NCBI GenBank assembly: GCA_963714975.1
Contig: CAVQQD010000003.1
Location: 384,001-448,000 of the forward strand
DNA from: an uncultured Gammaproteobacteria bacterium
Lineage (GTDB): Bacteria; Pseudomonadota; Gammaproteobacteria; JAURND01
DNA length: 64,000 nt
Reading direction: 5' to 3'
Below, one piece after another: positions 21,195 to 57,850 of the stretch. Below the pieces are notes generated by a model that did no database searches, was not told the DNA's origin, and worked only from the letters and a program-made list of their open reading frames with translations. Position numbers and translations under genes: made by a program. Within the stretch, counting starts at the first letter, position 1. Every line of letters begins with the position of its first letter.

Positions 21195-21507
21195 TCTCGT
21201 CTCCTGATCCGAAGCGAGAATTATATCTTAGCTTGCCATTTTAACTGTCTGAATTTCTTCGCCCACTATACTCAGCGGGCGCGTCAGTAGGGAGAAACCC
21301 TAGTTTAGGCTGGGGTTTATAGACTTGTATGCTTAAAAATTTTATTTTTTTAAAATTTTTAAGACATAGTTGATTCCCGGTGAATTAAAATCGCCTTAAT
21401 TTTCGTACAGTTAGCGAGACTGTGAAATAAATTTTTCGTACAATGTGGGCATTATTTCTTGAATGGTATTCCATCCCCTCGGTTTTATAAGGAAATGGCA
21501 CAGCCAT

Positions 21508-21619
21508 TTGACCGACGGGTGACGCGCAGGCGGGGACCCCAACGCGCGCAGGAACGAGCACGGTGGGGTGCCGCAGCGGCAGGACCCGTCGTGGATCAGG
21601 GCATCAGCGGGAATTGCTG
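21508..21619. repeat. Structured GC-rich repeat, copy A
   Basis: CGACGGGTGACGC...CGCGCAG..CGAGCACG...GCGGCAGGACCCGTCG core shared with 56227 and 57865; ends AGCGGGAATTGCTG. Confidence 0.8.
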
Positions 21620-21801
21620 GAGTAATCATCCTTTTTCTGGATTATTGTCTTCTTTACGTATATAATGCTGGTTTTTAATTATTTCAACATGAGGTTTTGC
21701 ATATCATGAACATGACTACTTAAAGTTGCCCGTCAAGGGCCAAAGAGCGCGCTATTTACGCTCTGTTTTGAGAATCGCCCTTCACTTTAAGAGAGTCACT
21801 T

Positions 21802-54042: not shown

Positions 54043-55961
54043 GCAATGAATATAATATTAGTGATGTGGATATTTACTTGTTTAACCAAGGCGATCATGT
54101 GCGGTTATATCAAAAATTAGGTGCACACTGTATCGTAAAAAATGCAGAGCCAGGGGTGCAGTTTGCAGTTTGGGCCCCTAACGCTAAACAAGTTTTTGTG
54201 ATGGGAGAGTTTAATGATTGGAATAAGACGAGTCATCCTCTGCAACCTTTAGCCAGTTCGGGTATTTGGGTTGGATTTATTCCTGGACTCTCCCAAGGAG
54301 AACATTATAAATATCATATTGTTTCTAATCGTCATAATTTATCTGGTGATAAGGCGGATCCATTGGCTTTTTATGCTGAGGTACCGCATCGCACTGCTTC
54401 GATTGTGTGGTCTTTGGATTATCAATGGCAAGATGCCGAATGGATGCAGAGCCGCAAAGAATATCAAGCGCATAATCAGCCGCTCGCGATTTATGAGGTG
54501 CATCTTGGTTCGTGGCGACGAATTCCAGAACAGGAAAATCGCTTTTTGAGCTATCGTGAATTGGCGCCACAATTAACCGATTACGTAAAACAGTTAGGAT
54601 TTACCCATGTGGAATTCATGCCAATTATGGAACATCCTTTTTATGGCTCCTGGGGTTATCAAATTACTAGCTATTTTGCCCCTACTAGCCGCTATGGTTC
54701 CCCTCAAGACTTGATGTATTTAATTGATTATCTCCATCAACACGGTATTGGGGTGATTTTGGATTGGGTTCCTTCTCATTTTCCTACGGATGATCATGGT
54801 TTAGCATTATTTGACGGGACACATTTATATGAACATGCGGACCCACGATTAGGATTTCATCCTGATTGGCATAGTGCTATTTTTAACTATGGTCGTTATG
54901 AGGTGCGTAGTTTTCTGTATAGTAGTGCGCTGTTTTGGTTGGATAAATATCATATTGATGGCTTACGGGTGGATGCAGTGGCTTCGATGTTATATCTAGA
55001 TTATTCACGTAAAGAAGGTGAATGGATTCCAAATCAATATGGTGGGCGAGAAAATATTGATGCCTTATTTTTTATTCGGCGACTCAACGAAGAGATTTAT
55101 AAAAATTATCCTGATGTACAAACTTTTGCCGAAGAATCTACTGATTGGGGGATGGTTTCCCGGCCTACTTATGTCGGAGGTCTAGGTTTTGGTTATAAGT
55201 GGGATATGGGTTGGATGCATGATACTTTATCTTATTTACACTATGATCCTATTCATCGAAGTTATCATCATAATGAATTAACTTTTCGTATGCTTTATGC
55301 TTTCTCGGAAAATTTTGTTTTGCCGCTGTCGCATGATGAAGTAGTGCATGGCAAGAGTAGCTTACTTGCGAAAATGCCAGGTGATGATTGGCAGAAGTTT
55401 GCAAACTTACGTTTATTATTGGGTTATCTCTATGCTCAACCAGGGAAAAAGCTGCTATTTATGGGAGGAGAGTGGGGCCAATGGGGCGAGTGGCAGCATG
55501 ACGAAAGTTTAGCATGGCATTTATTGCAGTATCCACTCCATCAAGGAATGCAAAAATGGGTGCAAATGCTGAACCAGCTTTATCGACAAGTAAAAGCTTT
55601 ACATCAATTAGATACGGAACCTTTAGGCTTTGAGTGGATTGATTGCGCAGACTATACCTCTAGTGTGATTAGTTTTCTTCGCCATTCGACTGAAAAAGAT
55701 AATTACGTGCTTGTGGTTATGAATTGTACTCCGGTAACACACCGGCAATATCGAATCGGAGTTCCTAATCAAGGTCTTTGGCGAGAGATTGCGAATAGTG
55801 ATGGTATGGAATTTGGGGGAAGTGGTCAGGAAAATTCAGGTGATCTGTGCACAACAGATACTCCTTGTCATCAGCGGCCTTATTCACTGAATTTAATTTT
55901 GCCTCCTTTAGGAATTCTTTTTTTGCAACCTCTCGAGGGGGCGGGGGGTCTATGCGATTAG
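54039..55961 (+). CDS. glgB: 1,4-alpha-glucan branching enzyme
   Basis: VWAPNA, DWVPSHF, RVDAVASM, AEEST and LSHDEVVHGK motifs. Confidence 0.96.
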   Translation: MSNEYNISDVDIYLFNQGDHVRLYQKLGAHCIVKNAEPGVQFAVWAPNAKQVFVMGEFNDWNKTSHPLQPLASSGIWVGFIPGLSQGEHYKYHIVSNRHNLSGDKADPLAFYAEVPHRTASIVWSLDYQWQDAEWMQSRKEYQAHNQPLAIYEVHLGSWRRIPEQENRFLSYRELAPQLTDYVKQLGFTHVEFMPIMEHPFYGSWGYQITSYFAPTSRYGSPQDLMYLIDYLHQHGIGVILDWVPSHFPTDDHGLALFDGTHLYEHADPRLGFHPDWHSAIFNYGRYEVRSFLYSSALFWLDKYHIDGLRVDAVASMLYLDYSRKEGEWIPNQYGGRENIDALFFIRRLNEEIYKNYPDVQTFAEESTDWGMVSRPTYVGGLGFGYKWDMGWMHDTLSYLHYDPIHRSYHHNELTFRMLYAFSENFVLPLSHDEVVHGKSSLLAKMPGDDWQKFANLRLLLGYLYAQPGKKLLFMGGEWGQWGEWQHDESLAWHLLQYPLHQGMQKWVQMLNQLYRQVKALHQLDTEPLGFEWIDCADYTSSVISFLRHSTEKDNYVLVVMNCTPVTHRQYRIGVPNQGLWREIANSDGMEFGGSGQENSGDLCTTDTPCHQRPYSLNLILPPLGILFLQPLEGAGGLCD

Positions 55962-57850
55962 GAGCAACCTATTTAAGTGAAAATCAAACTGAATTTCTGC
56001 TGTATGCTCCTTACGCCGAAGCAGTTGAGCTGGTCATTGGGGCTCCTGGCGGGTTTAAACAAGCCATGCTAAGACAAGAAAAGGGTTATTTTCATTGTAT
56101 TGCTCAAAATGTGCCGCCAGGCAGTCTTTATTGGTACCGTTTCAACCAGCAATGCTATGCTGATCCAGCTTCTCGTTTTCAACCGGAAGGAATTTTCGGA
56201 CCTTCGCAAGTTATTGATGCCTGTTACAGCAATTCCCGCTCTATAGAACTTTGGCCGACGGGTGACGCGTGGGGCAACAACGCCGCGCGCAGCGAGCGAG
56301 CACGACGGGTTGCCCGCGCGGCAGGACCCGTCGGGGATCAGAGCTTCAGCGGGTGGCGGGGTTTAGCGCTTAGTCAGTATATTATTTATGAAGTACATGT
56401 AGGTACTTTTACTTCCGAGGGTACTTTTGCAGCACTGATGGCGAAGCTGGATTGGATAGGCGAGCTTGGTGTGACCGCCATTGAGTTAATGCCAGTGGCG
56501 CAATTTCCTGGAGATAGAAATTGGGGCTATGATGGCGTGTTTCCTTTTGCAGTGCAGAATAGCTACGGCACACCGGAACAATTAAAAGCGTTAGTGCAAG
56601 CCTGTCATCAGCGGGGTTTAGCAGTGATTTTGGACGTGGTTTATAATCACGTAGGCCCGGAAGGAAATCACTTCAATCAATTTGGTCCGTATTTTACCGA
56701 GCGGTATCACACGCCTTGGGGAGCTGCGATCAATTTTGATGGACCCAGCAATCATGAAATTCGCCGCTTCTTCATAGAAAATGCTTTAATGTGGGTTGGC
56801 GATTATCACATCGATGCGTTGCGTTTGGATGCTCTGCACGCGGTATTTGATTATTCTGCTGATCCTTTTTTGGCTGAATTAGCTGAGCAGGTTCATCATT
56901 TTGCTCGACAGACCGGTCGATTCATTTATTTATTTGCTGAAGCCGCTCGGAATGACTTGAAATTTGTTCATCGCAAAAAGCAGGGAGGATACGGCTTAGA
57001 TGTGCAGTGGAATGAGGATTTTCATCATGCCTTACATGCGGTATTAACGGGAGAAAGAAGCGGTTATTATCAAGATTTTGGTCAATTAGCTCAATTGGCA
57101 AAAGCTTTTAAAGAAGGCTACGTGCTTACCGAGCGGGGTCAATCTTCTGCGGAGGTTGCAGGGGAAAAATTTCTAGTATTTGGTCAAAATCACGATCAAA
57201 TTGGAAATCGTATGCTAGGAGAGCGCTTCACTCAGTTGCTTAATTTTGCCCAGCGCAAACTTGCCGCCAGTGTGATTTTGCTGTCTCCTTATATTCCACT
57301 GTTATTTATGGGAGAAGAATATGGTGAAGAAGCACGCTTTTGGTATTTTATCAGTCACGCTAATCCTAATTTAATTCAGGCAGTGAGAGAAGGTCGACGC
57401 AAAGAATTTAGCCTAGATGATAATTCGAATGAAATGCTGGACCCGCAAGCAATCGAGACATTTATACAATCGAAACTGCATCATCATTTGCGCCAGGAAG
57501 ACTGGCATAAACCATTATATACCTGGTACCAACAATTAATTTCCTATCGAAAAAATATACCGACATTAGCGCACTTAGACAAAATAAATACCGTTGTGCG
57601 TTGTAATACTGAATTGATGCTAATGACGGTACATCGGTGGCATCAAAGTGATGAAGTCTTTATTGTTTTCTTTTTTGTTAACACTGAATCTAAGATCTCT
57701 ATTACCACGCCACCTGGAGTATGGCACAAAATATTAGATTCCGAGGATAGAGAATGGGGAGGCAACGGCAGTTCCTTGCCCCCAAAAATTTCATCTGAGA
57801 CCCAATTAATATTGAGGGCATATGTTACAGCTATTTACCGTAAAACGTGA
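55952..57850 (+). CDS. treZ: Malto-oligosyltrehalose trehalohydrolase with in-frame repeat insertion
   Basis: DPASRFQPEG, WGYDGV, RLDALHA and QNHDQIGNR motifs; ATG 55952 preferred. Confidence 0.93.
   Translation: MRLGATYLSENQTEFLLYAPYAEAVELVIGAPGGFKQAMLRQEKGYFHCIAQNVPPGSLYWYRFNQQCYADPASRFQPEGIFGPSQVIDACYSNSRSIELWPTGDAWGNNAARSERARRVARAAGPVGDQSFSGWRGLALSQYIIYEVHVGTFTSEGTFAALMAKLDWIGELGVTAIELMPVAQFPGDRNWGYDGVFPFAVQNSYGTPEQLKALVQACHQRGLAVILDVVYNHVGPEGNHFNQFGPYFTERYHTPWGAAINFDGPSNHEIRRFFIENALMWVGDYHIDALRLDALHAVFDYSADPFLAELAEQVHHFARQTGRFIYLFAEAARNDLKFVHRKKQGGYGLDVQWNEDFHHALHAVLTGERSGYYQDFGQLAQLAKAFKEGYVLTERGQSSAEVAGEKFLVFGQNHDQIGNRMLGERFTQLLNFAQRKLAASVILLSPYIPLLFMGEEYGEEARFWYFISHANPNLIQAVREGRRKEFSLDDNSNEMLDPQAIETFIQSKLHHHLRQEDWHKPLYTWYQQLISYRKNIPTLAHLDKINTVVRCNTELMLMTVHRWHQSDEVFIVFFFVNTESKISITTPPGVWHKILDSEDREWGGNGSSLPPKISSETQLILRAYVTAIYRKT
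56227..56353. repeat. Structured GC-rich repeat, copy B (inside treZ)
   Basis: Begins CAGCAATTCCCGCT; same core as copies A and C. Confidence 0.82.

Follow-up and report, generated by a model that had tools for sequence, protein, structure and literature searches.

An IS110-family element with a predicted bridge RNA occupies the basal stem of a hairpin repeat family in an uncultured gammaproteobacterium

RNA guidance is an established mechanism for insertion sequences of the IS110 kind. In IS621, the left and right target guides both include the core dinucleotide and the donor loop is laid out alike (PMC11208160). The region encoding the guide RNA is found upstream of the gene in the IS110 group and downstream of it in the IS1111 group, whose elements carry subterminal inverted repeats (PMC11187229). 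In Pseudomonas putida, two papers on IS110 elements specific for repetitive extragenic palindromic (REP) sequences describe copies located in one repeat family and in one orientation (Tobes & Pareja 2006, PMC1525189; ISPpu9, PMC12288879), and a preprint assigns to ISPpu10 both bridge-RNA pairing and a hairpin at the target (preprint 10.64898/2026.03.19.712850). Here, we describe an IS110-family element in a stretch of 64,000 nucleotides from an uncultured Gammaproteobacteria bacterium (contig CAVQQD010000003.1, positions 384,001 to 448,000, hereafter named the window). The host genome (G000 when compared with others) is 2.56 Mb long in three contigs, C1 to C3, and the window corresponds to C3:384001-448000. 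This element very probably selects its insertion site through its own bridge RNA, and the site appears to be the basal stem of a multi-copy hairpin repeat.

The window copy is located on the + strand at 18655-21374 and is split by an IS3-family element. Its span starts at 18648 (CAGCAATT/GTAAGT) and ends at 21379 (GTTGATT/CCCG). Genome-wide, there are four full copies of this ~1.3-kb element and one relic left end. Three of the full copies are intact and 99.7% identical (C2:68578-69893, C3:459650-460965 and C3:520417-521732), each adding 1304 bp to the 12-mer target described below. The right end of the window copy (21274-21372, +) is 99-100% identical to those of the three intact copies. The recombinase gene (18857-19810, +) encodes a DEDD protein of 317 aa in which both domains of the family are present, the N-terminal RuvC-like DEDD domain (PF01548, DEDD_Tnp_IS110, 3.9e-19) and the C-terminal Transposase_20 domain (PF02371, 9.6e-14). 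The protein also scores 160.7 bits against NCBIfam NF033542, 'IS110 family RNA-guided transposase' (cut-off 140), and matches the structures of ISCro4 (9t56, 9.4e-32) and IS621 (8wt6, 4.6e-29) in the PDB. In the alignment with ISCro4, the D (MDIGK), E (VETTG), D..D (KTDALDA) and S (ESG) positions, which we take to be the catalytic residues, are kept. The non-coding parts measure 202 nt from the left junction to the ATG and ~155 nt past the stop codon; this long region upstream of the recombinase gene places the element in the IS110 group. In addition, the end TGTAAGT... is not an inverted copy of the end ...ATAGTTG, and the lack of terminal inverted repeats, with a duplication limited to a 2-nt core, points to the same group. 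A second, distant IS110-family element (~30% identity) is present in four copies in the same genome.

The junctions of this element are uniform. All five left junctions, those of the four full copies and of the relic (16231-16400, +), read CAGCA/AT, and the four right junctions read AT/TCCCG; at greater length, CAGCAATT precedes each full copy as well as the relic, and GATTCCCG follows each full copy. In the window, the left half-site CAGCA with the core AT is at 18648-18654 (+), the same seven letters as before the other full copies and the relic, and the core AT with the right half-site TCCCG is at 21373-21379 (+). Joined, the flanks give the 12-mer CAGCAATTCCCG, as the original prediction had it and as is now confirmed from both junctions. 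Since an uninterrupted paralogue of the occupied site exists at C3:113380 (CAGCAATTCCCGGTGAATTAAAATCGCC), the 12-mer is the target sequence and not part of the element. Beyond CAGCA or the outer arm of a repeat, the sequences outside the left junctions are mutually unrelated; the left flanks are all different, which indicates independent insertions rather than duplicated segments. On the right side, three of the four full copies enter a GC-rich repeat directly (CCCGCTGAAACC... twice, CCCGCTCTTCCG... once), while in the fourth, the window copy, the 12-mer is at the edge of a repeat composite and the right flank reads GTGAATTAAAATCGCC... By repeat subtype, two of these right flanks belong to the CTGAAACC.. 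arm, one to the CTCTTCCG.. arm and one to the composite. The orientation is constant, with the left end outward and the right end toward the repeat interior.

The uninterrupted 12-mer occurs 29 times in the 2.56 Mb, well above chance as judged by the 0.74 expected from an order-4 Markov model, and is directly followed by CT in 25 copies. Of the 29, 24 stand at the outer edge of repeat loci defined by BLAST and point inward, these loci making up 0.19% of the genome. This terminal position is partly due to construction, because the BLAST queries for the repeat loci themselves opened and closed with the 12-mer; the variation of the sequence outside the 12-mer between repeat copies gives it independent support. 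Within the window, the 12-mer is exact at 21608-21619 (-) and 56227-56238 (+) and has one mismatch at 4927, 24293 and 36955. At up to one mismatch, this gives five matches where 0.29 were expected, a count that was not attained in any of 100 shuffles. The two exact sites are as originally described, the 12-mer opening one repeat copy (copy B) and its reverse complement closing another (copy A). The further proposal, that this IS110 element homes into the ends of a repeat family, is supported by the enrichment of the 12-mer in the genome and at repeat ends, by the half-sites shared by the four full copies and the relic, and by the guide matches and covariation described below. Among the four full copies and the relic, none is at an unrelated site.

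The left end probably encodes a bridge RNA (18698-18849, +), predicted by a single fold and by a consensus fold of five sequences. It would consist of a 5' stem-loop (18698-18719), a target loop (18723-18783) and a donor loop (about 18790-18849), the last two in the order expected for such an RNA. In the target loop, the left guide GUCAGCAAU (18738-18746, +) matches the target at 8/9 positions; its letters are those of the top strand of the left half-site and core, and it would pair with the bottom strand. The right target guide CGUGGGAAU (18759-18767, +), the reverse complement of ATTCCCACG, is exact at 7/9 positions and pairs with the target ATTCCCGC via one G-U pair. In the donor loop, the left guide AUAGUUCAU (18803-18811, +) matches the right end of the element, ATAGTTGAT, at 8/9 positions, and the right guide GCUUACAAU (18829-18837, +), the reverse complement of ATTGTAAGC, matches the left end ATTGTAAGT at 8/9 positions. 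A small hairpin stands between the two target guides and another one between the two donor guides, and the guides are identical across all four full copies. Scored without gaps, the target pair reaches 15/18 and the donor pair 16/18. Among 5000 random genomic 16-mers scored in the same way, three reached 15 and none reached 16. Overall, the left end seems to carry both the target-loop and the donor-loop guides of a bridge RNA (seekRNA) system.

Four other genomes encode related recombinases with 51-57% protein identity (G054, G166, G205 and G294). The ends of their elements are conserved (ATTGTAAGT...CATAGTTGAT, with CATGGTTGAT in G054), but the flanks differ. The G054 element has the target TAGCT/AT/TCTA with the left guide AUAGCUAU and the right guide GUAGAAU; that of G166 has CTCGCA/AT/GACGG with CUCGCAAU and CGUCGUCAU; that of G205 has GCAATC/AT/TAACAC with GCAAUCAU and GUGUUAAU; and that of G294 has ACGAC/AT/CTAT with ACGACAU and AAUAGAU. 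Read by eye, the target guides track the flanks in all four cases, which suggests that guide and target covary across orthologues. On the donor side, the right guide is kept in all five related elements, and an A/G difference between G000 and G054 appears both in the left donor guide and in the element end. The consensus fold of the five left ends has compensatory changes in 21 of its 42 pairs and contains the 5' stem-loop, a target-loop stem with a distal hairpin and a donor-loop hairpin. The targets in G054 and G166 are repeated sequences too, that of G054 being the centre of a palindromic repeat. The core dinucleotide is AT, because AT alone is common to both junctions of all five related elements. 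TT was considered as a core and ruled out: in G166 and in G294, the left and right junctions have only AT in common, and all four guides end in AU.

Beyond these orthologues, a tblastn search of plasmids with the recombinase gave a best identity of 36% and no close named relative, and a search of the genome contig collection gave only two distant actinobacterial matches. Among sequencing runs, no RNA run contained the element, and the DNA runs that did were soil metagenomes, with small shares. Reads from four of these soil runs gave only 150-260-nt pieces of the element, with no junctions, circle or empty-site joints.

In the mechanism that we propose, the ~200-nt non-coding left end that precedes the DEDD recombinase gene would encode the bridge RNA. 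An internal loop of this RNA would carry the two target guides and a second loop the guides for the joined ends of the element (..ATAGTTG-AT-TGTAAGT..). Recombination at the common core AT would then place the element between CAGCAAT and TCCCG, in a single orientation. Because a hairpin repeat present in many copies has this word as its basal stem, there would be ~30 equivalent sites in the genome, of which four are occupied. The guide RNA would be transcribed, and the element would pass through a circular form, at whose junction a promoter may be completed; promoter-like parts, read from sequence only, are a -35-like TTGAT in the right end and a conserved TGnTAnnnT in the left end.

Several points weigh against guidance by this RNA. 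At the occupied sites, the right target guide makes one G-U pair and then has a mismatch; it would better match ...CCCACG, a sequence at which none of the copies is inserted. Between the left donor guide and the right end there is one mismatch, and the basal stem of the donor loop can be paired in two ways that exclude each other. The left end has no match in Rfam 15 (evalue mode, 15500-22500), so the RNA assignment rests on the guide reading and on covariation among five sequences. In addition, the guides of the related elements come from alignments inspected by eye, with no null computed, and the sample of insertions consists of five events in one genome. The imperfect pairing of the right target guide with real sites would also fit a recombinase or host factor that reads the repeat hairpin or sequence directly, the left-end matches being then coincidental. 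The location of the target within the stem of a long palindrome favours such direct recognition, as does the finding, in the preprint on ISPpu10, that a hairpin at the target raises efficiency (10.64898/2026.03.19.712850). However, both guide pairs score at the far end of the null distribution, guides and flanks covary in four related elements with different targets, and in the window copy the 12-mer is followed by unrelated sequence instead of leading directly into repeat interior; we thus consider direct recognition quite unlikely.

Two further explanations concern the copies rather than the guide. Given their number and similarity, the repeats could recombine, and copies could have spread by segment duplication or by homologous recombination between element-bearing repeats. 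The flanks make this very improbable: the four left flanks have only CAGCA or the outer arm of the repeat in common, the right flanks come from different repeat subtypes, and the relic has a left junction of its own, separate from that of the full copy 2.4 kb away. It could also be argued that the repeats are deletion derivatives of the IS that keep its ends, the common word being IS sequence. Indeed, identity between copies extends through CAGCAATT and GATTCCCG, so that copy comparison alone cannot place the element boundary. On the other hand, the 12-mer is contiguous in the repeats, their interiors are unlike the IS, and the IS110 ends are not mutual inverted repeats; moreover, the 14-mer stem of the repeat is multi-copy in G096, G056, G329 and G191, genomes in which a search at E<=1e-60 found no close relative of the recombinase. 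An origin of the repeats from the IS is therefore extremely unlikely.

The element has an AT core and a new target, and it shows the same kind of behaviour as IS621, ISPpu9/10 and IS4321/IS5075. The natural sites of IS621 are reportedly REP-type repeats, and IS4321/IS5075, of the IS1111 group, are said to target the end of Tn21-family transposons and not a small hairpin repeat. IS621 has, like the present element, a two-domain DEDD/Tnp recombinase and a guide RNA with target and donor loops upstream of the gene in the left end. It is, however, a distant relative, with a CT core instead of AT and another target word and host; for the present element, long hairpin repeats have the target word as their basal stem. 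The strand logic of the left and right guides is the same in both (PMC11208160). ISPpu9 and ISPpu10 resemble our element by having all copies in one repeat family and in one orientation. According to the preprint, the left half-site of ISPpu10 is in a short local hairpin, whereas here the partner arm is ~20-130 nt or more to the right. IS4321/IS5075 differ by their downstream guide region and subterminal inverted repeats (PMC11187229).

The case leaves the knowledge of how IS110 elements work unchanged; it is a clear but ordinary example, of modest specialist interest. Its use may be in showing natural reprogramming of bridge-RNA elements through the set of five related elements, in which the donor ends are kept, only the guide letters have changed and the target is each time a different multi-copy sequence of the host, and which would form a natural series for guide rules with an AT core. 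For genome annotation, it predicts about 29 further insertion sites, one of them inside treZ. An undescribed hairpin repeat comes into view as well, with a stem conserved from family to family and with copies that can be in-frame in genes.

The full forms of this repeat are 130-143 bp long and carry the 14-mer CAGCAATTCCCGCT at each end, around a palindromic GC-rich interior. BLAST identified ~69 loci, mostly intergenic and many of them partial or nested. Words resembling the terminal inverted repeat (TIR) within two edits (TIR-like words) and with the CGACGGGT motif of the repeat downstream comprise 19 exact copies, 22 with one change and 14 with two. At 26 TIR-like ends a further outer arm (..TCCGATGCACA..GGT) is found outside the word, which is therefore subterminal in that subfamily; only the short form of the repeat has it at the very end. 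Hence, the original description of the target as the terminal inverted repeat of the family stands for the short form but not for the subfamily with the outer arm, and the basal stem of a REP-like hairpin with a variable interior is the better description of the word.

The 137-bp form was found in none of eight other genomes of the same family. The ~75-nt GC-rich core, with other flanks, is present in three of 399 other sampled genomes of the class, which belong to other families (79-83% identity); in these, the letters of its inner stem differ and still pair (CCCCGTTG/CAACGGGG, CCCTATCA/TGATAGGG). The 14-mer stem itself is found in 39 of 401 sampled genomes of the class. It is multi-copy in G054 (39 copies), G096 (26), G000 (25), G056 (10), G329 (10) and G191 (6), that is, in at least six genomes from six families, while a reversed control word occurs once each in three genomes. 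The interiors enclosed by the stem are different in each of the six and unrelated across families, ranging from a 4-nt loop to about 270 nt; they include a GAAA loop in G329, a 68-bp perfect palindrome in G056, and the 216- and 297-bp elements of G054.

Short, non-coding, bounded by terminal inverted repeats and present in many copies, the repeat has the general features of a miniature inverted-repeat transposable element (MITE). No target-site duplication is visible at the full-length copies, and no transposase was found between inverted arms in G000, where five of seven inverted TIR-like pairs 350-4000 bp apart were examined: ordinary genes lie within four pairs and a 1.5-kb insert within one, the remaining two being 918 and 575 bp. 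Thus, neither the duplication nor a related autonomous element with the same ends, both expected for a MITE, was found. Regarding REP-associated tyrosine transposases (RAYT), the genome has three Y1_Tnp genes, of the IS200/IS605 type. For two of them there is no TIR-like word within 1.5 kb, and the third has one repeat ~1.1 kb away, on a single side, so that repeats flanking a REP-associated Y1 transposase were not found. Two of these three Y1 transposase genes contain an in-frame TAG, and each of the three adjoins an apparent TnpB-type gene.

The repeat shares with REP sequences and bacterial interspersed mosaic elements (BIMEs), with MITEs and with the Rickettsia palindromic elements its short, multi-copy and palindromic nature, a conserved stem and nested forms. 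In-frame read-through of some copies inside genes is a further likeness to the Rickettsia palindromic elements. The present repeat differs from these comparators in showing no visible target-site duplication and no transposase flanked by its arms, and in having a stem that is conserved across families of the class, with an interior that is not. From these features, the family can be classed as REP/MITE-like. Neither copy A, in the search of 15500-22500, nor the ~75-nt GC-rich core has an Rfam match, a literature search for the repeat motif returned unrelated primer matches only, and one for IS110 together with MITE returned only the ISPpu9 paper. With no partner transposase found, the initial view that the repeat belongs to no described class still holds. 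Of the longer repeat loci, 5/21 are in frames open for at least 50 codons on both sides. Copies are in-frame, in either orientation, in treZ (56227-56353) and at C2:532145, C3:4869, C3:32599 and C3:339390.

In the window, the occupied site and copy A form one composite, made of the IS-split 12-mer, a 123-nt remnant (21380-21502, +) and the interior and right arm of the repeat (21503-21619, +). The remnant is the left ~120 nt of a 1.5-kb insert (92.7% over 123 nt), and the free 12-mer of copy A (21608-21619, -) is a predicted landing pad. The distance from the junction at 21373/4 to 21608 is 235 bp, in agreement with the first estimate. Repeat copy B (56227-56353, +) is in-frame inside treZ (55952-57850); its free 12-mer (56227-56238) is the second predicted landing pad, and its right arm is shortened to CAGCGGG. 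Solved TreZ structures have 9 residues at the place of residues 91-137 of the present TreZ, in the copy B region, for which they offer no counterpart; relative to these structures, copy B lengthens the linker that joins the N-terminal and catalytic domains by ~40 residues. Just past treZ, at 57872-57940 (+), there is a GC-rich core without the 12-mer arms, 87% identical to 56260-56328. Both free sites read CAGCAAT/ATTCCCGCT, exactly as three occupied sites do, which makes the landing-pad label that they had been given a reasonable one; in match quality, both equal the occupied sites. An insertion at the copy B site would break treZ.

The full form of the 1.5-kb insert is at C3:113392-114913 (region C3:113280-115137), single-copy and with broken frames, and is flanked by direct copies of the word (CAGCAATTCCCG ... 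CAACAATTCCG). A second end-remnant is located at C2:119956-120052. The open reading frame (ORF) of the full insert has no Pfam match, and its assignment as an IS4-like element was withdrawn on that ground.

The IS3-family element (19858-21270, -; 1413 bp), identified by Pfam rve and HTH_Tnp_1 and by NCBIfam IS3, is inserted at a small hairpin in the IS110 right end, 48 nt past the recombinase stop, with a CTC target duplication at 19855-19857 and 21271-21273. The intact IS110 sequence across this point is available from the uninterrupted copies. Two other copies of the IS3-family element are found at C2:414109-415522 and C1:259849-261263. The insertion adjoins a sequence resembling the terminal repeat of the IS3-family element itself (TATAGCGGGCG vs CTCAGCGGGCG).

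Four features follow one another in 16231-21379: the relic left end, the gene for a short-chain dehydrogenase (16458-17159), that for a class A beta-lactamase (17728-18627) and the full IS110 copy. The relic, from an older IS110 copy, consists of CAGCA (16231-16235), the core AT (16236-16237) and ~163 nt of left end. These 170 nt stop inside the donor loop and are 96% identical to the full copies (6 differences). Its right target guide (within 16310-16350) has GAGAAU where the full copies have GGGAAU. The relic guide would fit the repeat-end variant CAGCAATTCTCGCT, which has four genomic copies; the right flank of the relic is lost. From the relic left end (16231) to the right end of the full copy (21374), a 5.1-kb segment is bounded by outer junctions that are the element's own. 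The dehydrogenase and beta-lactamase genes have relatives with 63-70% DNA identity in related genomes and thus look native rather than imported. It is conceivable, and in our view rather doubtful, that the guide RNA is tuned to the 14-nt stem conserved across the class, so that the repeat would act as a portable landing pad, and that the 16231-21374 segment could be excised and reinserted as a unit. If so, the element could settle harmlessly in any genome carrying the 14-nt stem.

Two other repeated features were observed in the window. A 44-nt unit is perfectly duplicated in tandem at 43849-43937, its two copies starting 45 nt apart. A second short palindrome, CCTTCTCCCACAAGGGGAGAAGG, is found at 13445, 17526, 26794, 32699 and 38267, and has many copies in genomes of the same family.

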